A DNA stretch of 64,000 nt, from the NCBI GenBank assembly GCA_015680685.1, contig MNCI01000590.1, positions 46,368-110,367 of the forward strand. Direction: 5' to 3'. Below, in pieces: positions 5,395 through 61,589 of the stretch. Source of the stretch: Gnetum montanum (lineage: Eukaryota; Plantae; Gnetophyta). The translations under genes were made by a program, and so were the position numbers. How positions within the stretch are numbered: the first letter of the stretch is position 1; the number at the start of each line of letters is the position of its first letter. The notes under the pieces were generated by a model that searched no databases, was not told the DNA's origin, and saw only the letters and a list, made by a program, of their open reading frames with translations.

Positions 5395-8300
5395 ACTTGC
5401 TCTAGTTCATCCATGCCTATGACATATGCGCATGTCAGGTTCTGAGTAGGTTCCATGCAAAGTGTGCTACTTTTAGAATCAGCAATTAGCCACTAGGTGC
5501 CCTCTTGTTTTATGGCTATTACATATAGACACATTTGAATATCTACTTCAAGTGCACACTACCTATATGTAGAAATGGATGCTTGTTTAATGGACTAGAT
5601 TTTCTACATGCAATTGCACCCTATATTGCTATACACAATGCATGGAACTCACTTCTTCTGAATCTTTTTGAAAGCATTTTCCTTAGATAACTCCAAGGAA
5701 AGATCTCTAATGTCCATTCTTCCATCAACAATGCTTAGCCATGCCCTTTCCATGATAATAGGGAAGTCCCCTTTACATTTCTCCACCTTGATTACTAGTA
5801 AATTAGTAAGATAAGATCACCCATAGATAGTGGTCACAATGTCTTCCACTAATCCCAATGGAATAGTAATGAACTGGTCTACCAATTCCAAGTAGATGTT
5901 GCTCTTATTAAGGGGTGATAGGTTCTAGATAATATACATCTCATAAGAAATCAAGTTCACACCCAAACCTAAATCAAGAAGATCTTTACATGGTTCATTC
6001 CCAGTAATCTATAAGTAAATAAGAGGACTCCTAGGATCAGCTAATTTCTTGTGAAGGTTTCCAACCTAGATCTAATCAAATACGACATGAGTGAGCATAA
6101 GAGTATAGATCCTAGGTTACATTTGGTTTGAATGGGACTCAAAGGAATTAGATGTAGAGGAAGATGGAGAAGCAATGTTGCCAACCGCATGTGTATGTAA
6201 GAGCTTAGGTGGACTACTGGATCAAAAAAGGATCGTTTCCCTATTCTAGTGTTTGAACCACTCGATTGAGGAATTGGTTGTAGATTAATGACCCTAGTAG
6301 CATTATGTTGTTTTGGTTGGGTTGGAAATTCACCTTGCATAGATGGATCAGGTGGTAGTTGTGTTGAGGGTGGAGGAATAGATGCAAGAAAAAGAGGAGG
6401 ATAAGGATAAAAAGTGGTATCCCTCAAATGTGGAGAATGAGTTCAATAATATTTGAAAGAGTAGTAGTGATGTTGGAAAGTAGAAACCTGACTAGAAGAG
6501 TCATGTGGAGATAGGGGTTGTTGAACATAATACCCATATGAATCAGGTTATCAGTAAGGGTATTGCGACCTTGGTGATGGTAGTGCCCATGATTATGGTT
6601 GCTACCACTATTGATACTACTCATATGGTTGTCGTGGAGTTTTACTTGGATAATACTACTGTTGCTAATGGAACTACCTAGGATTTCCTTGAGGATTAGA
6701 TAATTTTCTAAGTGTTTTCCTTCTTACTATTCATGGATTTAGAGCATACATCCCAGACTCTTGTAAGTGTAAAACAATGGGGTAACATCCTTTAAGATGT
6801 TTATATTGGTAGATGTCACACCCACCGTCATCATTTGATTCAGTCTTTGCAACTTCTTCTACTGCAACAATCTTGCCCTTACCCCTTTAATTGGCATGTT
6901 TAGCTTCTTTTTGCCTCTTGCAATCATGATTACTACCTTGTTCTTTGAACTCTTTAGAAATTTTCAAGACAATTTGAAATTGGCTATTCATGGAGTCCCA
7001 TAGCTAATCTACCTTAGCCTAAATTTCAGAGGTTTATTTTTGAATCTGTAAGGTCTTATGGTTCACCACCTTATTAAATGATGATTCCTCCTCATTGTCA
7101 CAAAATTGAACCTTCCTCTTACAAATGGAAGGATCATGGTTGTATTCTTTTGCACTTTCATGTTTCCTCAACTCTTCTTCTTCTTTTGCTACCTACTCAA
7201 TCAATCATTGAATCTTATGAGCTCTTAATTCTAACAATTTCCCTTGGGCACAGATGCCAAGAGTTCTCTTTGTTTTTTATCAGAGCCCATCTATGATGTG
7301 ACAAAGTTGTTTCAGTTGAGAATAACCATGGCTAGGATATCTGTGTAATAGAGAATAGTATCAACCCATGGTGGCATCCAAGGATTCATGTGTCCCTTGT
7401 TTCCATCTTTGGATTTTGCCTCCTCAAGTTGGAGACTTGGGAGTATATCTAATATTTGTCATTGAATAGTTCAAGCATTGTACTCCACCATCTGATGGAT
7501 TCTAGTTCTAAGGACTAGTACTAGCTTCCTGCTTCTTTAATGAGTATCCTAGGGAACAACTTAAGCTTTTGTTACTCATTTTCAATATTTTGCAAGGCAC
7601 AAACATCATGGAAAGGTTGAAGATGATTTTGTAAATTTTACTTATATCCCCCTTCAAACCTAGGAATATTGTTCATGTCGAGCCTCTTGATTCGACTATC
7701 CTTAATGTGTGTTGTAGGAATTCTCACTACCTCTATAATGTTTAGCATGCTTTGGGTAGCAAGAAAAGGCTCATCAAGGCCATAATTTTGGTGCCTATGA
7801 TGCCCTCTACTAACCTTTCATTCATGGTGGTAGGTCTCTCTTGAACACCCATGCCTTAGGTCTTGAGTTGGCCAATGGTCCCTACAATCATCTTGGTCCC
7901 ATTGGTTACCTCCATCATGATTACACCCCCTACAATTGCATTCAGAGCTAGAAGAGGAAGATGATGATAATGAAGGTGAAGAGGAAGAAGGACTATCACC
8001 ATCATAATGCTTGCTACACCCTCTTTAATGATCATGGTCATGATCATGATCATGTTTCTTATCTGCATCTTTGCCATGGTAATCCTCCTTGGATCCTCCT
8101 TTCTCGTTGGATCCATTTTTTCCCAAAACTTGAATTATGGATCATGGACTGTAAGTTTTGATTTTGACCTCTTCACTAAAGTCAAAGAGAGAAGCTTCAT
8201 CGAATGGAAAATCCTAGAGAAGGGTTCTCCATCATCTTTGTGGTACGTAAGATATGGAAAATCATTAAACCATTTTTCCTTTGCAGATTTGTAGTGCTAC

Positions 8301-9650
8301 TCTAGTTGTCAATCCCTTAGATGTTGTGCCTCAATGGGATGATAATCCCTGGCATCACTATCCTACACAACATACTTAGCATGAAGTCCCTAGAGACCCA
8401 AACGTATAAGAGTTTTTTGGATCATCATAGGCATAGATCAATTAAGTGGCAACAAAATGTTTCCCTTCATGTCTTGTCATAGTAGCAGTTCATCATGGTG
8501 TAGGATGAAGGTGAAATTAGGTACATACTCATCAAGATGAGCATATATTACTCTATATTGTTGGGGCATCTATTGATGTACTCCATTAGATTTAGGCAAA
8601 GAATCATTCCTGTGAGACGAAGACATCTTGTGTTAGAAAATAAAAAATGTAGTGTGCTTCTTAACATTATTGTAGTTATTTTAATGTATGATATGACTCT
8701 AGGGTCATTCCAACAATCGTGAATAATTTTCACTAAGTTCTAAATAGTGCATGTAACAAACAAAAGGTCCCTGGCAATGGTGCCAATGATGAGCAGCAAG
8801 GTACCCCTACATCCAACATATGAATCACAAGCATTCATGTGTGATCCAATCAAATTTCACAAACCTTAAATTCTTAAGTACATTCGTTCTAAGATGTGAA
8901 ATCTAATTGTGACAATCGTTGTCTTCTTGACTATACTTGTGGAGCTTAATTGTATGGTTAAGTATAATTGAGGCACATGATTTTCATTATTTTATATTTT
9001 ATTTGTCTACGATTAATAACAGGTTGAAACTTGATTTATGAACCAATTTAATTAATGTAATTATTGATCAATAACTAACTATCCTAACACAATTATCCTA
9101 TCCTACTTTTTATGCACATCCTAAACACATATAATGCTACTAGGTTATCAAACATTAAGCATTGCTAGGATTACCAAGAGTCATATGCACACTTAGAGTG
9201 GTACTTATGTGCTTAATTAACTTCTATTTAATCAAACTAGCTTACTTTAGCTTAATTACTTAGGAGCATTAGAGGAAATTTCATAAACATTAAATGAATG
9301 AATAAAATATTTAAGCTAGCCATGGTGTTACAAGGTTTGATCAGAAAGCTCATCTTTATTGTTGCACACACTGCCATGCTCAAGTACAATAGTGCTCAAA
9401 TAAAGATCTGTATACTTAATGACTCCTACTATGGGCACCTTAAAAAATATTCTAACTCTAGAAAAAATAAATTGTAAGAGCTATTCTATGCTATGAAAAA
9501 AAATATATGGAAACCATGTGCCCAAGTGCTATATTTATAAGCTAGCACATACCCCACAATATCAAATATCCAACATCGCATCTTGGGGCCTGATATCGAA
9601 TACCTAACATTGCAACTTTGATATCGTATATCCAATATCGGAGCACTACA
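5395..9650 (-). mobile_element. Athila-like RT-less LTR element, copy B (5' LTR 8787-9650, PBS, gag, protease; 3' truncated)
   Basis: LTR termini TGTAG...CATCA on the minus strand. PBS 8785-8768 TGGCACCATTGCCAGGGA (tRNA-Asp-type). Gag and protease are collinear with copy A (MNNIPRFEGG near 7670, LLDLGLGVNLI near 5980). The post-protease tail matches A 13950-14090. Confidence 0.85.
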
Positions 9651-9880
9651 AAATATGATTCATTAGTATTATAAGGATTAGGTTGTCGATATGGATACTA
9701 TTGATGTGGTAGTCGCATGGCCCATGATTGATGCTATTACCACTATTGATAATATTTCTCCTACAATTACAGTAAAGGTCCACTAGGATAATACATTGGT
9801 TGAAGATTTTGGTAGTAGCTATGTTGAGAATAAGGTAACCATTTGGGCATTTATTTTTAAACAAATTTCGTGTTAAGTGT
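9651..9880 (-). mobile_element. Gag fragment of copy C, split from 17240-19430 by insertion of copy A
   Basis: Removing 9881-17239 joins ...cgtgttaagtgt|gtatgcccttgtttcttacaaatgtgc, which is collinear with copy B gag at about 6490-6800. Confidence 0.75.
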
Positions 9881-10939
9881 TGATGGGACGCGATATCGCA
9901 TGGGCCGCGATATCGTGTACGCGATATCACATCCACCGTGATATCGCATCCCATGCGATATCGCGTACACGATATCGCGTCCTACCCTGCGATATCACGT
10001 ATGCGATATCACGTCCCGCTATCATATCTATAAATAAGAGGTGGCACTCCCTTCATTTCTCATCCTAGGCTAGAAGTAGCGAAGCTCTGGTGGATTGATC
10101 ACCCCAGAGATAGAATATTTTCCATGTACCCACAATAAGAGTCCCCCAAGTGAACGGATCTTTATTCGAGCAGCTTTGTACCTGAACACAAGTTGTGTAC
10201 AACAATAAAGATGAGCTTTGTGGATAAACCTTGTAGTACATGGATAGGTTTTATTATTTGTTATTTATTACCTGTTGTTAGTGCGGTACGAGTACGACTT
10301 GATTACGAGCATCTACGGATGTGTACGGCTAGGCAAGGAATCGGCTACTCGTCGCAACGCAGTATGAGTACGACTTGATTACGAGCATTGACGAATGTGT
10401 ACGACTAATCAAGGAATTAGCTACTCATCGCGATTAGGCTAGATCGTGGGATAAGTACGACTTGGCTACGAGCACCTATGGGTATGTATAGCTAGTTAAG
10501 GAATCGGCTGCTTATCACACTTAGGCTAGTTAGGTGCCTTAGTACAACCACTTTGAGCACGTGCGTTACATGTGGTGATCCCTGTAACGATTAGTGTTTG
10601 GTAGCCACAGTTTCATAGTTCAAGGTGTGTACGGTAAGTGGGAACAGATGCTAATGCTAGTTAATTTAGACTTAGGTCCTTAGTTAGAGTTAGGTAGCTT
10701 TCTCAACCCTTCACCCTCATAGCTTAGGAGAAAAACCATAAAAGATCAAAAAAATCATATACCTCGGACTTACTTAACCATACACCATGACAACAACAAG
10801 TAAGTCTAGGAAGACAACGAATGATTAACCCCAAGTGTTCCATGGGGTGTTTAGGCATTTAGTCTGCGGAGTTCGACCGGATCGCACGTGTTATGCTCGT
10901 TTCGTATGGTTGAGTGTAGATGTACCTCGCCACTCATCA
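9881..10939 (+). repeat. 5' LTR of copy A
   Basis: Direct repeat of 16213-17234, with TATA (CTATAAATA) near 10028. I counted 13 substitutions (11 transitions) against the 3' LTR in the 180-bp block 10021-10200. Confidence 0.97.
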
Positions 10940-10940
10940 T

Positions 10941-10958
10941 TGGTGCCGTTGTTGGGGA
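10941..10958 (+). promoter_or_regulatory. Primer-binding site, tRNA-Asp type
   Basis: TGGTGCCGTTGTTGGGGA lies 1 nt after the LTR end. It is a deaminated form of the Athila consensus TGGCGCCGTTGCCGGGGA. Confidence 0.9.
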
Positions 10959-11078
10959 CTAAGTGTTTGTATGCCAAATGAACATAAGGGATATCACTCA
11001 CATCATTGTGATCCTTAACGAACCTTCGGGTTAATCAAATAAAAATTATATAATGGTGAATTTAGCACACTGATAAAA

Positions 11079-22578: not shown

Positions 22579-22946
22579 CAACAAGAATCAAAGACGCCAA
22601 GGCCAGAAACGTCGTGCAGTGCGTGAAACTTCATTCCGTGTTGGCCAGAATGACAATAATACTGCTCCATCACCACCTTTTGACTCTGTACTCCATATTT
22701 CGTGCTCATTATTGACTCTGTACTCCATATTTCGTGCTCATTATTAGCTTTCTGTTTCCTCGAAAATGAAATCCTCACGTGAATGACACAAAAGTGACAA
22801 CCGAACGCGCCCGCCGCCTGTCTGTCTTGTGAGAAAGTTCAAAGTTCAAAGCACATGACTGAAGAACAATGAAGAAATATCATGTTTAACAGTGATTAAA
22901 GACATTTGTTAACCAAGTGGTGGTACATAAATAGAGTTTAGTCTGT

Positions 22947-25619
22947 ATGTCATCCCCTCATCTGAGGAGAGTCGCATTTGGCAATACGTTGATGAGCATC
23001 ATGGAGTTGGATTCGATTTTGAGCATCATGCTTTGTGCACTAATAATGATTGTACTGGTGCCATGTTACTACTCTCTTCCCTCTGAAATGGAGATTCAAG
23101 CTTTGCTTGATTTCAAGGCAGGCATCACACATGATCCCAACCATTTTCTTAGCGGCTGGAATTATAGCAACCGTCATCAGCTGTGCTCCAATTGGTATGG
23201 AGTCTTTTGCTATGACGATTTTCAAAGAATAGAAAATGTGGGATTGGCGCAGAACGATCTCCATGGCATAATCTCTCCGTCTATATGCAATCTTACGTTT
23301 TTAAGAGTGTTGGATTTGTCTGGCAACAACTTTTATGGTAATGACTGATGACCCTTTCCCATCTCTTAAGCTGACAATTATATACTTGTTTCTGTCATTA
23401 AATTGTACGCTTATACAGAATTGCTATTATCGTGTTGTTATCCCTTTCTGTAACATCCCACATCAATTTTTGGGTAGCATCCCTTCAGAGCTGGGTCACC
23501 TTTATTTGATCTAAGCGAGAACAATTTCCATGGCGAGATCCCCAATTCATTGACAAATTGTTCTTCTCTTCAATATTTGATATTATATGAAAATGCCTTT
23601 TCAGGTTCCATCCCTCAGCATATCGGCCAACTGAAACATCTGCAGAGACTCAATCTCGAATATAATAATCTGGAGGGCCAGATCCCTCCATCTTTATCAA
23701 ACTGTTCTTCTCTTGAGTACTTGCAGTTATTTTCAAATTCGCTTAGAGGCACCTTACCAGCATTCATTTCCGCTCTTTCCAATCTTAAATGGATATCATT
23801 AGGGCAAGGCCAGGAAGCAGGGATATCATTAGAGCAAGGCCAGGAAGCAGGTGGTGGTCTTGAAGGTGCCATACCATGGCAGTGGGGGAACTTGTCCCAG
23901 CTCGAGCTACTATCCCTGAGATCACAATCCTTGACAGGCGATTTACCACAGCAACTCGGAAATTTGTCACAGTTATTAGTGTTAAATATAGAAGGAGACA
24001 TGCTCACAGGATACATACCTGCAGAGCTTGGCAAACTAAAAAACTTGAAGTACCTAAGTTTGATAGGAGGAAATCTCACTGGGCCGATGCCAGAAGAGCT
24101 CTGTTCTTTGACGTCTTTATGGTCCATGTACGTGGCAGGCAAATTAGAAGGCCATATTCCCGATTGTATTCACAAACTGCATAAGCTACAAAAATTTGGT
24201 CTGGTGGGCAATGATTTGAGTCAGGAAATTCCCCTTTCTATATGGGAGTTAACTGGGCTCCATATGCTGGAGATATCGGGAAGCAATCTTTCTGGAATCC
24301 TGCCACAGGAGATGTGCAATTTAACAAAGTTGCAGGTGCTGAACATCAGTGCAAACTTGCAAGGCCAGATTCCACACTGTATCGGCGGCATGAATAACCT
24401 GTCTTTTCTTATATTGCCCAACAACAAATTGAGGGGTCAAATCCCAAAAGCTATTGGTAATCTTCGCCACCTTCTTTATTTAGATGTTTCTAACAACAAG
24501 CTTTCTGGAACAGTGCCCTCTACTTTGAGAAACTGCAGGCAGCTGTACTCCTTGTTGATTTACCAGAACAACTTCAGTGGAGAATTTCAGGTGGTACTGC
24601 CACCTTCCTTGACGGTGCTGTCTGCCTTTTCAAATGGATTTTCAGGGTCTCTCTCTAGGCTACTGGTGGGATGCAAGAACCTTACAGTGCTGGATCTCAG
24701 AAATAACAGCTTAAGTGGCTCACTGCCAGAATCTGTGAGGGAAATGAAAGGGCTGAAGGCATTGAATTTGGGCCACAACAGGCTGGAAGGAGCCATTCCT
24801 GCATGGATAGTCAATTTGACAGAGCTACAGCTGCTGGATTTATCCAACAATCGATTTCAGGGCCGCATTCCAAAGCATCTGGGATTGCTCAAGGGATTTC
24901 AAGACGCTTGGAATATCACCGTGGGAGACGCAGATGATGGAATTCAGCAAACGATAGGGAGGCACCACTTTGATCTGGACATAAATGCCTATCATCCAGA
25001 AACTCTCAGAATGATTTTCACCCAAAAAGGACTGGAACTGTTGAACGAGCACATGGTATCCTACAACAATGTGCTGGATCTGTCGTGCAACCGTCTGATT
25101 GGTTCAATTCCGGATAGCATTGGAGACCTGGGCAAATTAAGGCTGCTCAACCTGTCTCATAACATGTTGACAGGCCATATTCCTGCTAGCATATCCAATT
25201 TAACCTGTCTGGAACAAATCGACCTGAATTCTAATAGATTGTCTGGCAGTATCCCTCAGGAATTAAACTCTCTCTATTTTCTGGGTGTTTTCAATGTGTC
25301 AAACAACCTTTTATGCGGCAAAGTTCCCACTTCTACGCAGTTCACCACGTTTGAGGAAAGTTCATTTGCAGGGAATCCATGTTTATGTGGATATTCTAAA
25401 AATCATACATGCCCTGAGCCAAAAACGCCTGGCTCAAATAATGCAGCATCAGCAGCTGGAGACAAAAACAAAAGCAATCACGGATGGTGGGAGTGGCTGT
25501 ATGAACATGTGTCGCTCATAGCATTGGGATTAGGATTTGGATTATCTTTTGGGGGAGTTATTGTGCTGTATTTTCATTGGGATGCTTTTCAGCGGTTCTA
25601 TGGTAGATACCTCATCTAG
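22947..25619 (+). pseudogene. LRR receptor-like protein (Cf/RLP-type, no kinase); two exons, probably disabled at the exon 2 junction
   Basis: Exon 1 (22947-23337) has a hydrophobic signal, LRRNT (ALLDFK..LSGW..CSNWYGVFC) and the first LRRs, with donor G|GTAATG. Exon 2 has about 20 plant LRRs, an island domain ending QKGLEL, GNPCLCG, a GxxxG transmembrane segment and a short tail. The expected acceptor before GTAGCATCCCT reads GG (23472-23473), and GSIPSELGHL runs into TAA at 23512, out of frame with DLSENNF. Confidence 0.88.
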
Positions 25620-26935: not shown

Positions 26936-27366
26936 AATATTTAATTTCGGATGATCCGTTAAAACATTGCGGTTCGCCCTGTCTGCACAGATTGCGGCAT
27001 TTCAACACAAAACCAGAACCACTGGACGCAACAAACGCAGAATCTTGTTTCACATTCTGTCTTCCGAATCGGTCAGACGGATACCTTGTTTTTGATTTCG
27101 ATTCATAAAATTTCATCTGAGACAAGTAAGTTCTGCAGAGATTGTACCATCTTTTAGGATTTTTAAGTTTATCTTCAATCTGCTGAATATTTTTGTTAAT
27201 TTCCCTTTAATTTCCCTTTAAAATGACTCCGTTTCGAAATCTCAGGTTGTTGTTGAACAGCGTATCATAATTCTGAATCAAATCATCCTGCAAAACCTCC
27301 ACTATCAAGATCTAGAGCATTGGAGAAATCGATAAACCCTACCTTGAAGGCGAATTCGACAGAAAA

Positions 27367-27871
27367 ATGGCGGACAGCGATACCGTGCCTCTACATCCGA
27401 GATCTTCACAATCTGATATTGACGAAATTGAGAATCTCATCAATGTGAGTGTTCAGCCGGTGACTTCAGCAGTTCCAATATCATCATCTGCAATTGTTCC
27501 TGTGGCGAGACCAGAAAGCCCTCCCAGGGCTTCAATTCCGGTATCTTCATCTTCCACATATACGCAGAAAATATCATCATCATCGAATCTAGTTATTCCT
27601 TCTGTGCCTGCTGGCAGCAATGGTGGGTCTGGTAACAGATCCGGAGGGATTGCTTCGGATGGTTTTGTTTTGGTTTCAAACACTCTGAATGAGCCTGTGT
27701 GGAAGACGATCAAGAGAGATGTTCTCAGTATCTCCAACATTCTGAAGCTGGGCGTTTTCCGAACCCCTACTGTGAGGATCCTGGAAAGGCTTGAGAGATT
27801 GGGATCTCTGGGGTCCCTTTTTCTTCATTTTTCTGGGGCGCATGCTTTCCTGGTCTACCTCGATTGATAAG
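27367..27871 (+). pseudogene. YIP4: Yip1-domain protein (YIP4/YIPF6-like), first coding exon, frameshifted
   Basis: [22 protein letters not shown] and [14 protein letters not shown]. After frameshifts: [28 protein letters not shown] probable 5'UTR intron spans about 27126-27245 (GTAAGT..CTCAG). Downstream exons were not found and may lie in the N gap. Confidence 0.85.
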
Positions 27872-35566: not shown

Positions 35567-36960
35567 ATTGGGCAAGTAATCTCCTAATTGGTTGGCCAAG
35601 TTACTTGGGAGAGAAGTTAGGTGAGATATTTTTGAATATGTAACTTCCCTACCTACCTTGGAACCCTATAAAAAGGCTTCAGGGGTCAAGGAGGATCATC
35701 ATCACTTATCATCATCACATTGGGACTTTTGGGAGGTCTCATACATCACACTTTGGAAAGCTACTAGTTAGCACTTGGGCTCTCACTTGAAGACACTTTG
35801 TGTCTTGAGAAGAGCTTTGTAAAGAAGAAATTGTGAACTATTGCTTGTGAGATGGCTTGCTAGAATAAAGATTTCAGCCTCTTTTTCATGGTCCTGTGAG
35901 TTATGCATTTCATTTTTTGTTTTGTTTAAATTGTTTAGCTAGTGGTTTAGATAGTATCATCCTTGGCAAGTAATTTTGGGATTTTTAGATTGCTCTTGTT
36001 GTTCCTATTGCCCGATAGAAATTTCTATTAAAATTTTGCCATGGAAGCACTTGTGTTTAAAAGCCTTAAGAGCATTTTAGTAGTTAATTTCATTATTGTG
36101 CAATGTGTGGGAACTGCTATTGGGATTGTTGTAAGAGAGCCTCTGTTTGTAGTCACGCCGTTGAACAATTCAGTAGTCGAGAGGGTTCAGAAAATCTTTG
36201 GTATTTTGATGGGACCAGAATAGCTTCTTTTTATCTTTAAAGTGAATTCTCGTGGTATTTCAATCAGAAATTGTCAAGTCTTTTAAAGGTTCTGTTTGAA
36301 TGCAATCGTTGACATCTATTATCTAGTCAAAATGGAGTCTCGTACGTGGTAGTTTACGCAGCAATTTTTGGTAGCATAATAGGATTGTCTTGAAGATATT
36401 GCTTGTTTGAGCCTTGGAAGTTTGAACAATTCGTAGATATTGAATTTGGGATAGCTTTATTGCGAAGTGTTTACTCGTGTCATTTTACCTTGTTTAAATA
36501 TTTGAGGTCTACACAAATCTGCTTTCCTTTCTTTTCTGCTTATTTCCATCGAATCTTGCTCTATTTCTAGTTTTCTTGTGGAACTATCTCTTTCTCTGGG
36601 GAAAATTAGGAGTAGATTGCGGAGTTGTGCTCAGATGTTTTTACAAAATTTTATTTGTTACAAGTAGGTATTATAAGGACCGCATAGACTAGGCAGTTGA
36701 ACAAAATAGGAAATTTTCAATGACTCACAGTACTTGGCAAAGTTGGCTAAATCTCTTTAAAGTAAGTCATTTGTAGTTTACACGCAACGCAATTGTTACA
36801 TTTCTCACAACCGCACACCGCAACAGCACACACACATACTCACATTAACTACTGAGTTTATTCGGAGGTATATGGGCCTTGGTGTTGCCAGAGACCAGCA
36901 GGCACCTAAATCCTGTTCGAGGACACTCGTTGGCGATCGCGTCCCAAATGGTCGCCAACA
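35567..36960 (+). mobile_element. 5'-truncated LTR of a different, probably Gypsy, family
   Basis: TATA CCCTATAAAAAGG near 35665; noncoding; ends GGTCGCCAACA exactly where the internal sequence of copy E begins. Confidence 0.55.
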
Positions 36961-39900: not shown

Positions 39901-42900
39901 ATGTGGAAAGATCAAGAAGAAGAGAGTTCCATGCATCACATATATTGACTTAGAGGGTGATGACATGGAAGAATGTTCAACATTTCTTCCATGTGATTGA
40001 TGTGCCCAAGAAATACAAATTCAGATGTGCCTGTATATAGTAACCACACAAGTAGTAGACACCCCATGGTTGATAACTACTAGAAAGAGCAAAGCAATAT
40101 GCATAGAATGAACGAGGGAAACTCATGCTAACAACGAAGGCATAGACACATTGGAGTATAAGCGTTGCCAACTTCCACCCCTTAATCTAAGAACATCAGT
40201 GGGGAGAAGTTAGGCACTGTTGCGAAATTCAAACAGACACTCATTATTTCAGATCTTTCCCTTTGCATTCAGTCATGGGGGAGATGGCCACCTATGTTGA
40301 TCATTGGAGGCCCTCAATTCTTTTTAGTTTTTGTTTTACAAGTTTTTTTTTACACATTTTTGTTTAATACATTTTTATTTTACATGTTTTTGTTTTACAC
40401 ATTTTTGTCTTACAAGTTTTTTTTTACATGTTTTTGTCTTACACATTTTTGTTTTACAAATTTCTTTAACTTTTCTTATTTTTTTTACAACATCGTTATA
40501 CTTTTCCATTTTTTGTGTGTGTTTGTGTGTGTTTTATCCACCTTGTAAGTTCATCACCCAATAAGTGTTCTTCATGATGGTATGAACTGCTTTCTTATTG
40601 ATTTCTAATGTTTGGATTTTACCTTAAAGTGATGATATTGATACTAAGGTATGTTCTTTTGATATGGCAGGAAATGAGTCCACTTCATCCATTCATGCAT
40701 CAATTTCTATGGTCTCTCTTAGCTTTGAAATGTACAATCTCCTTTCTAATAAGAACTTTAATGAATCGGTGACTGGGTATCTCTCAAACTAAGGAAGGAC
40801 TCAAGGCTTGAAAAGGGTATGACTTCAAGGAAACTTGATGCATTTGTGTTGGTTGTTCTCTTGGGTGCTTGGATGCTTTCTTCTTGAGTTTTCTTGTTGT
40901 TCTGATGTTACCCAATTATCAGAAGCTGAGCAAATAAAAATAAGAAGTCTTTGCATAGTGTGGTTTTCATGCATAAAAACATAAAACACAAAAAACAAAA
41001 AAAACACAAAAACAAAAAGAAAAAATAAACTTGGGCTACAAGCACTGGTTATGGAACTAAAACTGTTCCCTCTAACTAAGGCCCTTCTCTCTTCCCATTC
41101 TCTCATTCGTTCGTCGGAATGGTGGTGGCTCTTGAAGGAGGCATTCTTGTTACTCAAGTGCATGGTTTGGCCAAGTGCATTGATGCGAAGTCACTGGATG
41201 TGGTTGGTTTGAGGCCAGATTTGGAATGAGATTTTCAAAGTTACATTAATCCTAAAATCTACACAAGGGGTTGTACACCACCTTGTCCTTGGGATTCCAT
41301 TCCATTCTCTTCTCTCCATCCTTCTCTCCATTATTCACCTCATTGTTAACTCTATCATTAGTGTATATTTTGGTCAATTCATCGTTTTATTTTTGGTAAA
41401 TTCTTACAGTTAAGACTTTAACTCTTGTTCCAAACGACATTCCCAGAGCCTATGGAATCTTTGAATGTGGGTTTGTTAGGGTATTAAGGGCATGAGCCTG
41501 CTTTGGGGAGGACCCATTGACATTCCTATTTGGTGCATCAATGAAATTCTTTCTCTTACAATTTTTACAATTAATTTTATTTTTTTCATTCCCATCTTGA
41601 CATCCATTTCATAGATGTCTTAGCTATCTTTTTTTATCCATCTTCTTGTTCTTATTCTTTCTCCATTCTATCGCTACTGGAGGTTCGTGATTAGTCATGG
41701 GGGTACAGGGCCAATTTTTTTTGATTTTCCCTTAACCCCTACACCTCCGTAGTCATCATTTACATACCTCCAGACCCAAATCAGGCATACCACAACTCAG
41801 CCAATGGACTTACACCAAACCAAGGTATCAATTACATGATAATTCATTTACCCTTGCTAACATAAGACTGTGTTGTGTGTGCAAATGGCGATCATGCAAT
41901 AATGGACTGGATCTGGCGAAAAACACTTGGAATGGAGTGGTGCTGAAAGCAGCTATGCAAGGAGCAAGATCGATGGTGCACTTACAGATGGACAATGAAC
42001 AACACAATATTGACGTTTGCAATAGCAACACGTATTTCTCTCTCTCGTTCTCAGCTAACAAATGAAGGCCTGATGTTAAAGTAATAAGGTGTTCATCCTT
42101 GTTGTCATGAACACCAATTTTGTTGTGTCTTGTAATGATGATCTGTTCACATGTCATCCCATTAGTTTCATTTGAGTCAATAATCCCATACCTTCCCGAT
42201 ATTATTGTAAGGAACTTGAGGATAATTTTTCATTTAGTCATGGGGGTATGATGGGACGTAATATCGTAGTCGTTGGGATATTGCATCCCTCACGATATCG
42301 CGAATGTGATATCGTGTCTTCCCCTGCGATATCGCATCTTCCCCTACGATATTGCATACGCGATATCACAGTGCATCATCATATCTATAAATAAGGGGCA
42401 AATCTTCCTTATTTCCTTATCCTAGGCTAGACAATAGGGAAACTCTAGAAGATTGATCACTCTAGAGATAGAATATTTTCCATGTGCCTGCAGTAGGAGT
42501 CCCAAAGTGAACGGGTCTTTATTCGAGAAAATATTATACCTAAACACAATTTTGTGTATGGCAATAAAGACAAGCTTTCCAGATAAACCTTGTAGCACAT
42601 GGAATAGGATTTTATTACTGTTATTTATTATCTGTTATTTACTGCTTTATTAGTTATTTACTGTTTTCCTTCTCAACTCTTCTCTCTTAGTTAAGTGCCT
42701 CAGTACGACCACTTTGAGCACGCGCGTTACGCGTGGTGATCCCATCAATGATTAGTGTTTGGTAACCATGGTTGCATTGGTTCAGGGTGTGTACAGTAAG
42801 TGGGAATGGATGCTAACGCTAGGTAATTTAGACTTAATTCATTAGGTAGAGTTAGTAATTAGTCTATCTACCCTTTACCTTGTTAGCATAGGAGACAAAA

Positions 42901-44161: not shown

Positions 44162-45590
44162 TGTAGGAACACCTCTTCCAAATCCCTTTTTCATCCCTAC
44201 AGGCAAAAGATTGAAGGTATTAGATAGCTAGAAGACATATTGTTCCTTTGAAGATGTTTTTCCTAAGAGTTGGACATTTATAGAAGATTTCTTGGACATC
44301 AAGAAGATGTCCAGTCTAAGAGCTAGAGAATTATAGGATATGTTCCATCAATAGGGGAGACATCTTACAAAAGTAACAGATGTCTCTTCTATGAGGAATA
44401 CATCTAAGAGGAGATGTCTTGTCTCCAATGTAAATGTCTTAACAAGTTCAAAGATGTCTTATCTACAAGTTATAGTTTCCATGAAGACATATTGTTAAGC
44501 ATATAAACATCTTATTCTACTAGGAATGTTAAAATCAAGATTAGAAACAAACATGAATGTTCTGTTCAACATTGTAAACAACCAGAAATGTTTGAGTTGA
44601 TCATGAGAAAGGTTTCCCCAACATCTTGTAATTAATAAATATTAATCATGTTTGCATATTTTAGATAAGAGAGATTGCATGAAAGTGGTGTGCTTCTTTG
44701 TGGTTAATTATATATGTGATGTTGATCATTGTGACTCTTTATGTGTGTTAGATCTTAGTCTAGTATGCATGAGAAAGAGGTCTAGATTAGTTGTACCTTA
44801 CATTGAGGTTGATCATGTACATGGTTGTAGAACCTCATGCTCTACAATATCATTGAGTGTGTGATTTTTTTTATAGGTTTGTGAATCTATAATAATTGTA
44901 ATCTTCTTTTAAATTAATTGAAGATAGCTAGTTTATTTGTTTTGTAGAAAATTCATTATCTTGCATAATATTTGGATTTGGTGTGTTTGAAGGATTAGTA
45001 ACCTCACTCTAGGATTGGTATCAGAGCATAGATTTTTTTTGTTTAGAAATATGTTATGGTTTTTGCATTTTTTAGATGGATGCTAAGAAGAAAAATGTTC
45101 AAGCCCTAAATGCATATATGGAGAGCATGAAATCTACCTTTTAGCTAATGTTGAATGATTAGATGAGATCAATACTAAGGTAAATAGAAATATAGGTCCT
45201 GACCATATTCCAAATTGTGGTGATGATGAGTAGTCTTATTTAAATGGTGATGAAGATGTTTCTCAACCTCATGGAGGGAGAGTAGATGAGGAAGAGCATT
45301 CTAGGTATGGGTGTGTGAGAATACTTCATTATAGGGTTTCATGCAAAGGAAATTCAAATTCTTAAGTCAAAAAATCCAAGAGCTTCATCATACACATCAT
45401 CTTCTTCTCATGAAAAATTTTATAATAAATATGACATAAGAATTTTCATAGTGTTTAGGAATGTTGCAAGACTTCCGTATGTGGAATTAAGGACTTCCAA
45501 TGGTGTAGATGGTACCAATGCTTTTGCAGTTTGGTTAAAGGTACTTAAAAAGTGTTTTAAGATTAAGAAGATACCAAATCATCTAAGGGT
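44162..45590 (+). mobile_element. LTR, iMet PBS and gag start of a CRM/chromovirus-like element
   Basis: PBS TGGTATCAGAGC at 45016-45027. Gag remnant ELRTSNGVDGTNAFAVWLKVLKKCF. Homologous to the minus-strand copy at about 49820-51050. Confidence 0.7.
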
Positions 45591-47597
45591 ACCAATTATT
45601 ATGTTAGGACTAGGCACAAAAGTATTCTAGCATGAGAAATGACATCAGTTACTAAGAGAGCCATCATATTTATTTCAAAAATATTTTTCACCACAAGAAA
45701 CTCATGATTGAAGTAGGCCTTACTATGGATTTTAAATTGTTTTAAAGAAAAAACACACACAGAGACACAATAATATAATTATCTTTGTATTTGAATAATG
45801 TCCCACAAGAAATTTCAATCATGAGTAGGGTCACACTCCCACAAGAACCATATAGTTGGAGCAATGCACATGGCTCATATTTATTTGCATCCCACAAGAA
45901 CCTCCTTTTGTAAGTAGAGTGTTTTGTGATGCAAAATCATTTTTATGTACTAACTTTCTCAACATTCTTTTTTTTGGCTAGGACATGGCATTTTCTTGGT
46001 AGATTGACTTATTCTACTTTGATGATTTACTACTTCCTTTCATTTTTTCTTATCCTCCTTGCTTGGCTCATTTTACCCTTGTTTCATAATCTTTTCTTTT
46101 TGTTTGTTATTACTCTTTTTATTTTTCTCTTTTTGCTTATCTCTTTCCATTTTCTTTTTCATGGTCATCTATTATGCCTAGTGGTACTCTTAGTACATAG
46201 GTCTCTAATATGTTTCCCATCATGAACTTCATAGGTGTTAGTGGTTGAGATCCCTACTATGGCGAACAATGATGGATACTAACAATTTTCAGATCCATGG
46301 CTTCTAGTAGACTATCCATAATTTTGGATATATAAAATCCATGACACTTTTTGCTTTTGGTATATCCTTTGGCCATTCTTACTTTTTAATAACTCATTTT
46401 TACTAATTAACCTAGGAATGATACATATCCTAGCTTAATTAAGGGGGATAATGAATTCATAATGGATAAGATAGTAGGACATAACCAACATGGAAGATGA
46501 TCCAAGAGTAAGTTAGGGAATGAGTTAGATGTAAAAAATACATCTTAGATCCTTAAAACATAGGAAAGGTTAAAACTATGAGTTTGTAAGACATTCTTGC
46601 ACCTACTGAAGCAAACCTTGTGAGGTGATGTGTTAGCTCGATTAATCCTAGGAAGGTCTTTCCTAACTAAGTTATATGTGGACTCCTGTCCAATTAATAA
46701 GAAATTATTATAAAGAGAGGAATAAAAATATGTACATTATGTAGAAATAAATCACAATAATATTGATTGATATCGCTTCTCTCAACTTAGGGTGATTAGC
46801 ATAGGTCATACTATTAAAGGATATCAAAGTATCATATCGAAGAGGATCGAGAGACTAATGTCTCACTCTAAGATAAATTGAGGTATCTAGATTCTAGTGA
46901 TATAGTTTGATATCATTATGAAAAAACTTAAGTTATTAATATAAATTTTGTTTTAATCAATTTGAATTGAGATGAAAGATAAGGGGTATATCTATCCATA
47001 CTGATTAAATCAATATGGTTCAAACACAACCAAATTTTTTCTAAAATATTGCATCTGAATAGTACAACATCAATATAAATCAATATATTTATTAAACATA
47101 TTGATTCTATTACCCTAGATTAACTATGATCAATATTTTTGATATTTTCCCGAGCACCTTGATTTTTATCAGTGAAATTGTGATACTAATCAATATAGCA
47201 AAAACCTACATTCGTTATATATCAAACCATATCAATGGATCTATAAAATTCAACCTAAAATGATACAAATCATATAGAATTCAAGTGGCAACTGTAATAT
47301 AAAAGAAACTGTCCCAACGACAACATCATATTTTTGCAAATGAGGGTAGCAAGATTTAGGGCTTTCACCTTTAGTGTTAGGGCTTTCATTTCTCCATGAA
47401 TCCTCATCTATAGCACTCATTAGGAGGGACCATGATGAGAAGTAGGGTCTAAAAACCACTTGAATCCCATTTTAACCATTCCTAAGAAGGGTAAGATGAT
47501 TTACTGCCCTTCTTGGATTTTTCAAAACTTAGAGAATGATGTTAATCTTGTTTTTTTTGTTTCTTTTGTCGTTAGTGCATGCAACCTTCCTTATAAA

Positions 47598-49819: not shown

Positions 49820-51050
49820 GATGAGGTGACATCTCTACAGTGAAGATAACAACAAGGGTAATTCAACATCAAAGTTTGGCTAGCTAATTAATATGCCATT
49901 TTGAAAACTCCTAAAAAGATTGAAGCTTATTCATAGTCCTCCCAATTTATTTTAGCTTGATAAAATAGATTACAAAATTTGATTTAGAATTGTTTGGCAT
50001 GTTTATCAAATTATCATAGGAACTTCAACTCATAATAGGCTCTTTCCTTTGACAAAATTGTTCAAATTTTCTTTTCAACCTATATTTCACTAGATTGCAA
50101 TCTCTAATACATTGACCATTTTATCTTTCATAACCTTGGAACTTCTTCATCTACCAAGTAGAAGTCATACCTTTTAATCTAGATTTAGCATTATGTACCC
50201 ATACGTTATTTGGCATCTCTTCCAACTCAAAGTATTTCTCAAGCACCTTCAACCAACTTGAAAAGGCATTGGTATCATCTACATCATTGAAAGTCTTTAA
50301 CTCAATGAAAAAAACTCCGGTAGCATTATAGAACACTCTAGCAAGTCTTGCTTCTTCCTCATCATCATGCTTTCCTAGAGAAGAAGAAGTTACCACTATT
50401 AGAGCCCATGGAATTCTCATCTAATAAATATGATTTCTTCTTATTATAATCATTCACTAATATGTTTTGACACTCTCATAGCTAGATTGTCCTTCCTCAT
50501 CATTTGCTCTATCTTCATCTAGTTATGAAACTTCTTCATCTAAATGTGCATGCTCATCACCTCTGCATGTATTGATATGGATAGGATCAAAATTTATATC
50601 TAAATTTGTACTAATCTCATCCAACCAAGAAACCATGATTTGAAAGTAGACTTCATGCTCTCCATGTCTTGATGTAGGGCATGCACCTATTTCTTCTTAG
50701 GTGTCATCTAAAATTGACAAAATTCTCAACCAAATCAAAGTAAAAATTAATGCAAAACTCTAATACCAATAATGCTAAAATAAGTTCACTCTAATATTAA
50801 AATCACATTCCAACACTAAATATAGATATTATGGAAAAATAATTTATGTGCTAGAAAATAAGAAAACTAGCTATCTTCAATTATTTAGATGAGAAGATTA
50901 CAACAAGGTTCCACAATCTAAAAATACGTTCAAACCACTCTAATCACTCAAACAATGTTGTAGAGCATGAGGCTTTATAATCACATAATGGCTATTCTTA
51001 ATGTAAGACACAATTGATGAAGAATCTCTTCCATAACTTGGAATTGAGAA
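49820..51050 (-). mobile_element. CRM-like element fragment (LTR part, PBS, gag)
   Basis: PBS TGGTATTAGAGT at about 50768-50757. Gag ELKTFNDVDDTNAFSSWLKVLEKYF..AKSRLKGMTSTW. The LTR matches 44800-45010 and 61600-61800. Confidence 0.72.
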
Positions 51051-54000: not shown

Positions 54001-57000
54001 AAAAACTTAGCTAGCTGCAAATGAAGATAATGGATTTTGGAGCACCATAAGGATTATATATATAGTTTTTACGAACTCAATATTAAGTATCCAAAGTTGA
54101 GTCTGACCTGATAAGGGGTAGCCAATATTGAGGTGCTCAAACTTACATATTATAAGGGTAGTTAGCATGGAAAATAAAGTTCTATGATTGATGGAAGGGT
54201 TTCAGGTCAAATCCAAAGTTTTGGGGGGTAAGTGAGAATTTATATGTAGGCATTAGAACTATTAGAAGATGGAATCGTAGGAATTAAAAGCTTTGGAAGA
54301 TGCAAGAAAAGGGATAATAGATACATGGTATAGAATGGATCAATTATATGATAAAGGAAAGTATTAAATTTAATTAGTTATGTACTTGGAAGGTTCAAGA
54401 CGATGTGGTTGTGCTAAAAAGGTACAAGTCACAACAATTACAGAAGTCAGTCCTCCCCAAAGTAGGCTTTAACCCTTAATGTCCTTGTATAATCACACCT
54501 AAAAATGTTTATAGGCACCAAAGGGGTTGAATGCAATACATACCTATAAAATAAAACAAACATGTTAAAACCACCAATTTGAGAAAATAACTCTATGTTA
54601 CACAAAACCATGAGTTATGATCATATAGATAGTGAGATGAGATGAATTTGTGAAGGGATTGTAGAAATTGGAACATGAGGTGTCTTACCATAGGCATAAT
54701 TAATCCTTGTGTGTGATTAATGGTTAAATTAATTAGTAGCCATTCTTACTAAGATTCAAACCAAGTTCATACCATGTTCCAGCAACATCGCATTGGTTCA
54801 TCTCTTCAATTAACAGCCATAAGAACCATCATTATGAGTAGCATCACTTAGCATTTTGTCCAAGGAAGGAGTTTATTCATGGTATGTCTTTCTTTCTCTT
54901 TTATTATTTTGGCAGTATTCTGAGAAGCCACCAACCTTCAAGAGTGGGTACATGTATTTCTAATGGGACCCTCAAAAATTTATTCAATGCACTTTTGTTT
55001 TACTCTTACTTCCATTTTTCATTAGATCTACAATGATATAATTATAACCTTAGAAATATGATAAAACATATAGAAGTGGTCAAAGAGAATCCAGAAATCT
55101 CATTGATGTCACACACTTTACATTCCCCCTTGGTTCTATACTTTCTTATCTAGGCCCAATGATTATGAATTTATTTTTAGTTTGGTGATGGAAAAGAATA
55201 TCATTATTACTATAGTAAGATCCTCTTATTAATGGAATGGATGGATGGATGATGAGGCTTCACTATCCAAATAATTAGTTTCTCATGACTTGAAAACATA
55301 GAGAAAACCTAACGTCAATGGACTACATGAGTGTTTTATTCATAAGTGAGATTACTAACAAGGGAATGAAAGAAAAATATGGAAAAATTCAAAAAGGATA
55401 GGAAAAATTTATATCAAGAAATAAGAAAAAGACAGAAAATTATAAAACAAAAATATGAAAAACACCTATTAATTTTGAATGTTAGACTAGAATGTCTCTT
55501 CCATGACTAAGAATTGGATCATGGTAAGAATGAATAAGCCGATAGGCAAGCTTCATGTATGTGTAAGATAGTGTTAACCTTTCATTTTCAAGCCACTGGG
55601 TGTCTCTTGGTTTAATGGCAGGTGCATAAACAAGTTGTTGTTCACACACCTGGTTGTTAAATGTATGGTGGATCATAGTATGAGTTATGTAAACATTGTG
55701 GATGTTTGACCCACGATTTATCCCTTGATCATGATTAGGAATGCATGGGATCACTTGTCTCTTCATAATGCTAAATTCATTGTTTCTAGTAGATGTTGGA
55801 GTAACAATGGATGGTGGCCTTTGCATAGGATCATAGGACATTGATTGTAAAAGAGAAGGCATTGCATTGGATTGGCATTGTGCTGGTTTGGATGATGTAG
55901 TAGGTCCATGGGTGTTGCGATTATGCATGGGAGATATCTTAAAGAAATGATGTTTCTAAGATTGTGGTGTGAACCTACTAGCATTATCATGCCTAAGCAC
56001 ATTCATAGCACAAGTGACATTCTTTTGTTAATGTTGCAATGCTGAACTTTCCTATGTTGGTGGTGGTGACATGTGATGGGGTGGAGTATGAAATTATCAA
56101 GGATAGGATGGAGGGTAAGAGGTTTAAGGTGGTGATCCTTCAATAGATATCATTGGTTGATGATACTTGGGAGAGTGGTAGTAGCACTTGGAAGTAGAGG
56201 AAGTAGTACTAGTTGGGAAAATAGGTTGTTGAACATAATATCCATATGGGTTTGACTAACAATAAGGGTAAGGTTGGTTTGGTGATGGCCTTTCCCAAGA
56301 TTTTGGTTTCAACACTATGGTTGATGATAGTGTTGAGGCTGGTAAGAAGTCCTCCTAGGATAGTATGATTTGTTGTAGGATTGTCTATAATTACCTTTTA
56401 AAAAAGGTAAGTTTCTAGGCATGTGCTTCTATGTGAACTTGGAATTTAATTCAAACACCCAATACTCATGTAGATGCAACATGACTAGAAAATAGCCCTT
56501 TGGATGATCATATATGAAAAGGCCACATCTGTCATCTTCATCTATGGTTGTGCCTATAGCCTCTTGTTCTTCATCAATTTTTCCTATTTGCCAATAAGTG
56601 CTCCTAGCTATTTCTTGGTTCTTCTTCCTCTGTTTATTGTGATTGCTTAATTTGTTTTATGTTACCTTCTCTATGATTTCTACAAAACGTGTAACATTCT
56701 CATTTATCCACTCTGACTTCCTATCAAAATTTGCTTCAAGTTTATCAATAGACTTCTGTATCAACAAAGTTTGTTGCAAAATCACCTTATCGAGAGTTAC
56801 CTCTTTCTCCTTATTATATATGGGGATCTTCTTATTTTGAAGAGTTGGGTCCTAGTGAGAGTTCTCAACATTATCCCATTTACATATTTCTTCTTCTTCT
56901 TTTTCCACATGCTCAATTAGTTCTTGGATTTGATGGGTTCATAGCTCATATAATTTTCTTGGAGCATACATCCAAAGGATCTCCCTTGTTTCATTACAAA

Positions 57001-58934
57001 TCCCATCTATGATATGGAAATGTTTCTCTTCCTTAGAGAAACCATGGCTTGGACATATATTTAGTAGAGAATAATATCTATCTAAGGCCATATCTAAGGG
57101 TTCACATTGTTCTTGTCTCCATCCTTGGATTCATGTCCTTAGGTTAAACACCCTCAAATTAGTTTGGTATTTCTCGTTGAAGAGGTCTAGAATGGTGGAC
57201 CACTATTGAATTGAATTTGGTTTCAATGATTTATACCACACTTTAGCTTTATTTATTAGTGTCGTAGGAAAGAGATTCAACTTTTACCACACACTTTCAA
57301 TGTTGTATAAGTCATAGGCATCATGGAAGGCTTGTAAATGATGTTGGGGATCAAAATCATAGCCTCTCTCAAATTTAGGGATATTATTCATATCAAGATT
57401 TCATAATCAACTTTCCCTATGATGTATATGGGATATCTTAACTACCTATATGATTTACATCATGCCCTTAGTGGCCAACAAGGATTAATCGTCATCAAAC
57501 ATGTTGTGATGAATATTTCTATTTCTATTTATTTAATTGTGATGATTTTGTCTATCTTCATTTTGATATCATTGATTGTTCCCATGATTTTGGTTGCTAT
57601 TTTTATTTTTATTTTAACACCAATGATGAGCTTGGTCTCTATACCTACATTCATCTTCTTTAGAACTAGACATTGAAGATGAAGAGGAAGATGAGGAACT
57701 AGGAGGATTTTCATTGCTTCTATGGTGTTCAACATGGTCCCTTGATTTATTGTTTCCAAGTTTTGAGGAGGTCCTAGGCCTTGAGGCCTCCCATAGTCCA
57801 AGACTTACGTTGTCTCCTCCAAGGTTAGCTACCTTCAGTGAATGTAGTCTGCAAGTGTTGTCAAGGTAGTTATGAACATATCAAACCCTTGCATGAAGTT
57901 GGTCACTCCAATGTTCTTCAAAATATATCTCCTCAGTTCTCCCATTAATTTTTTCACTATCCAATGCATTATCACCTCCTTGTGAAAGAGACATTGCTTT
58001 TAGTTAATGATGTGTGTGATTTAATATTTTCTGAAAGATATATCATTAATGCATTTACAATGATCGTATATAATATAACTAATTTAGATAACTAGCACCA
58101 TCCCTGACAATAGTGCTAATGATAAGTGCTGAGGTACCCCCTACATCCAACCATATGCATCACAAGTGTTTATGCACAATCCAGTCAAATTTCATGGATG
58201 GGACTAGTTGTGGTATATAGATTGTTATGTCTTAAGAATAATTCACTATCTTCCCACTTGGACTAGTGGTAGCTTTTTCATGTATGGTTTAGTCCAAAGT
58301 GATGCATAAGCTAGTTAATGTTGAGCTATGCCTAATGATAATAAAAAACTTAATTATTTAATCTAATTAACAATGGAAAGAAAAGTCTAAACTAGCCTGT
58401 GTGCAATGAGTATCCATTCCTAATCATCTGTACATGCCTTGGACTTCATGTAACTAGCACTGGGATTATCAAGTGTATGTTACTAGGTGTACCAAACAAT
58501 ACACTACTTGGCTACCAAGTAATTACACTTAAGCACTCATGATTAGTTGTACTCATTCTGCTTAATGATAGGAATAATAAAGAGTAATAAATGAAAACAT
58601 TAACTAAGGAAAATAGTAAACATTTAAGAAATTAAAAGCAATAATAAATCTAAGTAGATGACACAATAATAAAAGTAATGTAATGCATCCAAGTATGTCA
58701 CACTATCACTTAACATGACACTATAGGCATGCACTGGAAAATAAAATTTTGACTAATCTGAAATGTATTAGAAAGCTATCTAAAATATATATCCCAACCA
58801 TGCATTGAAGTGTGGTATTTATAAGCTAGCACAAAAGGGATGATATTGGATGCTCAACATTGGAGGTTGTGCCCCGATATCAGATACCCGACATTGTGAC
58901 CCTGATATAAGATATTTGATATCGCAACCCTACA
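51100..58934 (-). mobile_element. Athila-like RT-less copy D: LTR 58120-58934, PBS, gag, noncoding, env-like ORF; 3' LTR missing
   Basis: LTR TGTAG..TATCA. PBS 58118-58101 TAGCACTATTGTCAGGGA. Gag MNNIPKFERGYDFDPQHHLQAFHDA near 57390. Shares KRQVIPCI, the AGTCATGG box (about 55505) and GCCTACTTTGGGGAGGAC (about 54455) with copies A and E. Confidence 0.85.
51200..53515 (-). pseudogene. Degenerate env-like/accessory ORF of copy D
   Basis: Starts ATG GCC CCA AAA AAA GGA (MAPKKG) at 53515. Contains NLPQMYF..LPFPCLIKKLCKHIGI, then an E/K/Q-rich coiled-coil-like region. Early stops look like deaminated CGA, CAA and CAG codons. Confidence 0.65.
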
Positions 58935-59150
58935 AACATGACTCATAAGAAGGTTTTTAAAAGATAACAAAATAAATAAAAAATTTAAATGAAGGTTTAA
59001 TTTTAATATATAAATATTAGAGATCATGGATCATTGATTAGTTGGTTAGCTCACATTACCTTGAACTCAAGGGTACTAGGTTTAAAGTTAATTATTGACA
59101 CCTTATCCACATCAAACTAGAGGTATTATTCCAATCATATTGCTTTAACA

Positions 59151-61460: not shown

Positions 61461-61589
61461 CATCATCATCATTATCTTGGTGCTTTTATCCCATTTATGA
61501 CAGGAAAAGGATTTAACAATACTTTATAAAATAGATAAAGCATGAAGGTGCCTAGGTATGGCTTTGGAGTAGGTTTACTTCTATATTAA

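Follow-up and report, generated by a model that had tools for sequence, protein, structure and literature searches.

A predicted, co-varying RNA hairpin around the AATAAA signal at a mapped poly(A) site in the LTR of an Athila-like retrotransposon family

Element A and its relatives

The window, i.e., the whole stretch of 64,000 nucleotides that was analyzed, is plant DNA rich in repeats, and it contains a full-length LTR retrotransposon, element A, both of whose LTRs carry two predicted RNA hairpins downstream of the TATA box. Four further elements or LTRs in the window (B, C, E and F) are related to A. The features to which the text refers are the following.

9881..17234 (+): element A, a full-length 7.35-kb non-autonomous Athila-like Ty3/gypsy LTR retrotransposon
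9881..10939 (+): 5′ LTR of A (copy A5′), containing both hairpins
9888..10014 (+): U3 array of palindromes of the GATATC type, lying upstream of the TATA box and forming the strongest fold of the LTR, on both strands
10029..10036 (+): TATA box, kept in A, E, B, C and F
10085..10109 (+): hairpin 1, with 6 bp, a bulge at 10091, 2 bp and an 8-nt loop
10121..10244 (+): long nested rod of 124 nt, straddling the R/U5 border
10158..10166 (+): anti-signal arm, complementary to the AATAAA strand; its 8-bp core is constant in four copies
10204..10209 (+): AATAAA poly(A) signal, predicted to be wholly paired, in the 3′ strand of the middle stem
10225..10228 (+): poly(A) addition site at the end of R, at an internal loop left unpaired by the consensus fold
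10229..10939 (+): U5 of A, 711 nt, with the 3′ arm of the outer stem, a T-rich tract (about 10248-10285), 76-bp tandem repeats and two GTAAGT donor-like sites
10941..10958 (+): primer-binding site (PBS) of the tRNA-Asp/Asn type, as described for ATHILA
about 11900..14120 (+): broken gag and protease-like frames, limits approximate, with a 150-base N gap at about 12951-13100
16213..17234 (+): 3′ LTR of A (copy A3′), with a short purine tract just before it; its hairpins lie at 16380-16404 and 16416-16539
42443..42604 (+): the hairpins as found in E's 3′ LTR, at about 80% identity
9310..9481 (-): 5′ LTR region of element B, about 74% identical; A is inserted into or abuts B
19072..19200 (-): LTR of element C, a distant homologue with the anti-signal arm kept and the signal strand decayed
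58620..58760 (-): LTR F, distant, without the anti-signal arm (a 19-nt gap) and without AATAAA; missed by the covariance model described below

Element A has direct LTRs, TG...CA ends, a 5-bp target-site duplication (AGTGT), a PBS, a polypurine tract and a retrotransposon Gag, as expected of an LTR retrotransposon of the Ty3/gypsy type (OTA superclade). Its two LTRs are 91% identical (K2P 0.09; 69 transitions and 16 transversions over 1,022 columns), so that transitions make up 81% of their divergence, and they enclose an interior of 5.3 kb. The Gag assignment comes from a frame of element E that matches the gag of A and hits PF03732 (Retrotrans_gag) with an E-value of 0.0003, which is below the curated cut-off, and from a 67%-identical relative that bears PF03732 and scores 0.92 against Retrotrans_gag clusters; Gag searches identified the family and returned no lineage name. 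Among the 6 of 19 listed frames of A that were scanned, no reverse transcriptase, RNase H, integrase or other pol domain was found. Elements with only gag and protease are common in ATHILA, which has a PBS of the tRNA-Asp/Asn type (bioRxiv 10.64898/2026.03.20.713144, in the part available), and positions 10941-10953 of A match the published 13-base ATHILA PBS motif at 10 of 13 bases, with all three differences being C to T. Since the lineages of the OTA superclade are defined on RT/RH/INT, according to the available text of PMC6317226, with the lack of an archaeal-type RNase H telling Athila from the Tat clades, and no pol was seen in A, our label stops at "Athila-like".

The LTR of A has unusual proportions, with a U3 of about 180 nt, as judged from a transcription start that we infer near 10060, and a U5 of 711 nt; R would then be about 165 nt. 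The 76-bp tandem repeats of this U5 are absent from E, and the U5 of the relative C is only tens of bases long. Pairs of GTAAGT donor-like sites recur in three copies (10634 and 10800; 16929 and 17095; 42796 and 42960), and it is possible that those in U5 would serve as U1 sites, though both LTRs have them. The U3 GATATC arrays (9888-10014, 16213-16315 and 42251-42375) fold with z scores of -5 to -9.5, far more strongly than the rod, differ by deletions among reads, and resemble the cis-palindrome region of Sireviruses.

B (5600-9720, -), C (17370-19500, -) and F (56200-59000, -) are older relatives with the same PBS type and a gag, and A lies between B and C. Using a covariance model of the rod, we recovered C at a rough E-value of 0.0004, among 9 matches at E-values up to 1, of which 4 were the training copies. 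Pattern scans for further copies gave 0 matches in metagenome contigs (two scans, the first of which omitted the family's commonest letter at one place), 0 in genome contigs, and 2 in viral contigs that we take as chance. The stretch is present, whole or in part, in sequencing runs from seven organisms, in some at small shares; no RNA run was among those listed by identity, which says nothing about expression.

Several other features of the window were noted. An LTR-like region at about 35640-36000 (+) has a TATA-like box near 35667 and AATAAAG at 35864, spaced approximately as in A, and is unmatched by the covariance model, and a second, unrelated repeat family is present as three diverged pieces (44791-45592, 50195-51013 and 61570-61795). 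A frame for a plastid-type ATP synthase epsilon subunit (atpE; 22079-22528, -), which may be gymnosperm-like, is probably a plastid insertion. Two frames of 137 and 713 aa at 22935-25619 (+), identified by eye, encode a leucine-rich-repeat receptor-like protein that is possibly broken or interrupted by an intron. A frame at 27316-27867 (+), presumably resembling the N-terminus of the Yip1 family, had no Pfam match.

Predicted fold and co-variation of the rod

The rod consists of outer arms at 10121-10129/10236-10244 and middle arms at 10158-10166/10204-10212, exactly where the initial annotation had placed them, and the same arms occur in A3′, E and B. That the AATAAA lies within a paired strand was likewise borne out by the predicted pairing, which puts the hexamer in the 3′ strand of the middle stem. 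Two of the earlier stem assignments stand in part: the arms of the outer stem are present in B, but their pair probability is 0 when B is folded alone, and the two strands of the proposed inner stem could pair in each of the four copies, yet their pair probability nowhere exceeds 0.03. In the predicted folds of A5′ and A3′ a different inner helix is favored, so that any model of the rod tip is tentative. The tip is probably not a GNRA tetraloop, since position 10188 reads A, G or C, and a pseudoknot of the two inner helices was rejected on geometry, since a 1-nt link would presumably need to span about 11 bp.

A5′ folds with z = -3.76 (0 of 200 shuffles as stable) and E with z = -2.48 (2 of 200), in windows picked around the structure; sliding 140-nt windows score less evenly and are weak in E and B. 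The corresponding fold of C is no better than its shuffles (z -0.03). Opening the AATAAA of the four copies is predicted to cost 3.3-6.5 kcal/mol, with ranks 2, 7, 13 and 15 among the 163 AATAAA sites of the window (median 0.82), all in the top tenth, and with the four homologous copies counting as one observation. When U3 or upstream RNA was added to the folding, the opening energy was unchanged in A5′ (4.7) and E (3.2-3.3), fell modestly in A3′ (from 6.5 to 4.9-5.4) and fell strongly in B (to 0.7-1.5). A general opening of the signal by U3 is thus not predicted for A5′ or E, so that discrimination between 5′ and 3′ LTRs would need a second input. Rfam has no match over hairpin 1 or the rod; the rod is an analogue of the retroviral polyA hairpin and not a member of a described RNA family.

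Of the 152 cells in the structure common to the four copies, 146 pair (96.1%). Among its 38 pairs, 8 have both partners changed, whereas shuffles give 3.3 ± 1.3 such pairs (none of 500 reaching 8) and slid controls 1-3, in a test that is biased in favor of the structure because this was derived from the same sequences. We therefore used a blind test, in which one copy was folded alone and the changes of the other were re-dealt within the same letter and the same CG, CHG or CHH context. Compensatory pairs exceeded the null clearly between A and E, whether A5′ was folded and E scored (5 versus 1.1, P 0.0008), A3′ folded and E scored (4 versus 0.7, P 0.0008) or E folded and A3′ scored (4 versus 0.8, P 0.005), and also with A5′ folded and B scored (8 versus 3.0, P 0.003), but not with A3′ or E folded and B scored (7 versus 4.3, P 0.09, and 5 versus 3.6, P 0.27, respectively), all six comparisons sharing sequences and not being independent. 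The earlier claim that diverged copies differ by compensatory changes, taken here as changes beyond those of methylation, thus holds for A versus E (P about 0.001) and is weaker for B, where the excess is clear with A5′ but not with A3′ or E. Kept pairs were above the null in 12 of 12 blind runs (P 0.004-0.013).

The double changes are mostly pairs of transitions (7 of 8), with one double transversion (U-A to G-C in B), and one of the double changes runs from A-U to G-C, opposite to the direction of decay. The middle helix, which holds the AATAAA, is invariant at 8 of its 9 pairs in the four copies, and the ninth pair changes on both sides; the outer stem co-varies as well. Folded by itself, B has 53 confident pairs, of which only 18-20 occur in the other copies, and it loses the outer stem. 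Between A5′ and E, 62 of 76 paired and 71 of 87 unpaired columns are conserved, i.e., pairing gives no advantage. Taken together, the recurring arms and their co-variation in four copies, on a predicted fold, support the view that the LTR contains a cis element under selection.

Family reads, hairpin 1 and the poly(A) site

Sequencing reads were placed on A at 80% likeness and thus reflect the family rather than the A locus, at which only 4, 0 and 28 reads matched at 99% or more; the reads are not assignable to 5′, 3′ or solo LTRs, the variant tables are unphased, and the variants considered are 40 of the 107 in the 10075-10330 region and 40 of the 612 in a second table. Within this scope, the common read letters at 10128, 10135, 10201, 10202 and 10238 give G-U pairs that form on the sense strand only, and positions 10132 and 10234 alter at 71 and 73% in DNA. 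In RNA reads, C is found at 10158 in 36-55% and at 10212 in 60-79% (unphased), and these two letters probably disrupt the terminal pair of the helix on the AATAAA in an expressed subfamily that is common.

Hairpin 1 begins 49 nt after the TATA box, in keeping with the distance of about 50 nt given by the initial annotation, which had in addition described it as a perfect 8-bp stem, as differing from E by two G-C to A-T swaps and as similar to TAR. The sequence quoted for it was that of the 3′ LTR copy (16380-16404) under coordinates of the 5′ LTR, and the perfect stem depends on a G at 16386, where 352 of 424 one-direction X21 reads have C; the form that recurs has 6 bp and then 2 bp, with a one-base bulge between them at 10091. 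One of the two swaps survives, at the pair 10092-10103, and the second relied on a letter peculiar to A3′. The alternative letters at this pair, A at 10092 and T at 10103, have matching shares in three RNA runs (77/77, 83/83 and 93/91%) and shares of 44/54% in DNA contigs, which supports a G-C to A-U exchange between subfamilies, and so hairpin 1 in its bulged form, although linkage alone would also give matching shares. The likeness to TAR is reduced to position, as the element has no recognizable transactivator and there is no Rfam match over the hairpins. Hairpins of the TAR type stand at the very 5′ end and bind a transactivator that the element itself encodes; hairpin 1 would begin about 25 nt downstream of the putative start. 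The loop contains a palindrome, TGATCA (10096-10101 in A5′), which is also found in the loop of E and which reads restore at 16394, where A3′ differs (441 of 468 X21 reads), and which B, C and F do not have at that position.

RNA reads that end in long runs of A map the poly(A) site. Loose ends of this kind follow position 10218 in 126 X21 and 114 X22 reads and position 10228 in 66 X22 reads, which places the cut at 10225-10228, i.e., 16-19 nt past the AATAAA, with the tails clustering within about 4 nt among the loose ends listed. The genome has only three A at the tail position, fewer than internal priming is usually taken to need. Sense depth over 10210-10236 falls from 348 through 140 to 50 in X21 and from 310 through 112 to 28 in X22, while DNA contigs go from 1.0 through 1.04 to 0.84; the depth left across the site is 0.14 in X21, 0.09 in X22, 0.55 in X24 and 0.84 in DNA contigs. 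Both tail-bearing runs, X21 and X22, were sampled in a single study; in X24, from another study, the 6 loose ends in the 24 of 338 loose-end rows listed include templated read-through but no tail. The AATAAA thus stands where a working signal would be expected, an outcome in favor of the initial annotation, which poly(A) sites unrelated to it would have refuted, and the arrangement resembles that of the polyA-hairpin type in two respects: the AAUAAA lies upstream of a real poly(A) site, its being in R assuming a start at about 10060, and the signal sits in a hairpin across the R/U5 border that co-varies in four copies and whose fold is predicted.

With the cut at about 10228, R ends there, U5 is 711 nt long and the 3′ arm of the outer stem lies beyond the cut, so that the whole rod would be present only in the 5′ leader and in the uncleaved 3′ precursor. 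Many reads extend upstream beyond the TATA box, as expected of transcripts from 3′ LTRs, and no cluster of molecule starts was found near the expected start, a result that is uninformative since such transcripts traverse U3. Reads also cross the end of U5 and the LTR into PBS-type sequence, as seen at 286 loose ends of X21 and 356 of X24, about equally in both directions, and host read-through could be their source.

Two features of the X21 profile lie outside the rod. At 15700-16130, before the 3′ LTR, stranded X21 reads are up to about six-fold more antisense than sense (for example, 364 versus 68) and the ratio flips at the LTR; candidate sources of this excess are an antisense promoter and priming on host read-through. 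A second sense peak at 16726-16890 lies upstream of an A-rich tract (about 17020-17055) and is either internal priming or a second poly(A) site.

Proposed function and comparison with known systems

We put at about an even chance a model in which the rod damps the first AAUAAA, so that transcripts from the 5′ LTR run on into the element. In this model the middle helix could close once the hexamer has been transcribed, and the outer stem, with its 3′ arm past the cut, would reinforce it as long as the RNA is uncleaved and not afterwards. The signal would thereby be suppressed at the 5′ LTR and released at the 3′ LTR through a second input, conceivably upstream elements in U3 or the 3′ UTR, or the distance from the promoter, as in HIV-1. 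The anti-signal arm has no role of its own as a sense signal, so that its conservation points to pairing, and arm and signal are absent together in F; C, on the other hand, keeps the arm without a good signal or a significant fold. Since the signal is evidently used, masking cannot be tight.

A possible alternative, to which we give about a quarter of our belief or slightly more, is that the rod belongs to a replication scaffold of the 5′ leader, serving Gag recognition, dimerization or first strand transfer, with pairing of the AAUAAA being incidental; a non-autonomous element would have to keep such a scaffold for mobilization in trans, and TGATCA would be its kissing site. The co-varying outer stem, which requires uncleaved RNA such as that of the 5′ leader, and the loop palindrome of A5′ and E, restored by reads in A3′, are consistent with this, as are an R-region loop proposed to act in strand transfer of Tto1 (PMC3061985, in part) and, in Ty3, a 6-nt palindrome in a hairpin that drives dimerization (PMC11381356, in part). 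This scaffold would not account, however, for the fact that no helix varies less than that on the poly(A) signal. Any 6-mer palindrome is a weak clue, and this one is missing at that place in B, C and F. Scaffold and signal damping are compatible and both may hold. The opposite effect on the signal, a rod that promotes 3′-end formation by presenting the cut site in an open loop beside the T-rich tract and so fixing the tail position, would fit the mapped site in an unpaired loop of the consensus and the narrow spread of the listed tails, but we consider it improbable, as cleavage factors should have poor access to an AAUAAA that is fully paired, judging from HIV-1, and a spacing of 16-19 nt requires no structural help.

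That the rod has no function as RNA, being an old DNA inverted repeat or a two-way terminator whose double changes are paired methylation decays, seems to us very improbable. On the minus strand the anti-signal arm does read AATAAA, the two strands fold with about the same stability in each of the four copies, the reads include antisense RNA from the family, and transitions prevail both among the double changes and between the LTRs. Against this, the context-keeping null is rejected for A versus E, one double change is a transversion and one goes from A-U to G-C against the direction of decay, the common variants make G-U pairs that work on the sense strand only, and no antisense 3′ end (neither a poly(T) loose end nor a depth step) was seen near 10140-10150 among the rows shown. 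Precursors of miRNAs usually have an MFEI above 0.85; the rod, 124 nt long and lying in a transcribed LTR, has an MFEI of 0.57-0.71, no paired run longer than 11 nt and no match in Rfam. We consider it highly unlikely to be a Dicer substrate that yields hairpin small RNAs, even though such RNAs have been proposed for the LTR palindromes of Sireviruses (PMC4728375, in the part available), and the U3 palindrome array, the counterpart of that Sirevirus region, would be the better candidate.

More tentatively, and with more doubt than confidence, signal damping could be extended to an Athila-like two-hairpin R/U5 leader that arose independently of lentiviruses, in which the anti-signal helix would gate the signal, the loop palindrome would start dimerization and alternative inner helices would switch the exposure of the signal. 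If true, such a leader would explain directly, through RNA structure, how gypsy LTRs of plants spare their RNA at the first LTR.

Among plant elements, the available texts give partial parallels. In the Ty1/copia element Tto1, i.e., in another superfamily, a hairpin is likewise predicted in the redundancy region of the LTR, but its loop was proposed for strand transfer, and the word "polyadenylation" is absent from the main text (PMC3061985, in part). Non-autonomous ATHILA elements share with A the PBS type, the 5-bp target-site duplication and a gag and protease without RT, RNase H or integrase, whereas the accessible part of their description includes no R/U5 RNA structure (bioRxiv 10.64898/2026.03.20.713144; PMC6317226). 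The LTR palindromes of Sireviruses match the U3 GATATC array of A and not the rod downstream of the TATA box (PMC4728375, in part). A U1-linked suppression of an internal poly(A) site is reported for a plant Ty1/copia case (PMC5580714, in part), and long R regions of retroviral LTRs have stem-loops, the LTRs of plant Metaviridae being ones that could not be modelled in that LTR-wide survey (PMC3601003, in part). Among the papers listed by our literature search, none describes a hairpin that co-varies and masks a poly(A) signal in the LTR of a plant Ty3/gypsy element.

Large plant genomes consist to a great extent of Ty3/gypsy elements, for which U3/R/U5 borders have rarely been located. A mapped poly(A) site in a co-varying hairpin opens the textbook retroviral question of how the first signal is ignored to a reporter test in plants, and it bears on how often solo LTRs of the family end host transcripts. 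The HIV-1 polyA hairpin is shorter than the rod and has its signal at the top; in A the rod is about 124 nt long and the hexamer lies wholly in a helix. The layout is otherwise the same, with a short hairpin followed by an AAUAAA hairpin across the R/U5 border: in HIV-1, R has a hairpin and then the AAUAAA-containing polyA hairpin, which is present in both LTRs and truncated on 3′ polyadenylation (PMC2645353 and PMC3432602, in part). The stability of the HIV-1 hairpin is balanced, and the asymmetry between its LTRs comes from a U3 element, promoter proximity and U1 snRNP (PMC2645353, PMC3432602 and PMC12789967, in part). Element A differs in its plant host, in being a Ty3/gypsy element in which no Tat-like protein was seen, in its U5 of 711 nt and in that its masking is a prediction. 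CaMV, MLV and foamy viruses also meet a signal in R twice and bypass it through promoter proximity, a weak signal or U1 snRNP, according to the available text of PMC12789967, cases in which no co-varying anti-signal helix is the explanation; that other retroelements manage with promoter proximity or a weak signal counts against the need for a masking rod. What is new here is the mapping of the family's poly(A) site to 16-19 nt after an AATAAA that is predicted to be paired, the principle being one already known from HIV-1.
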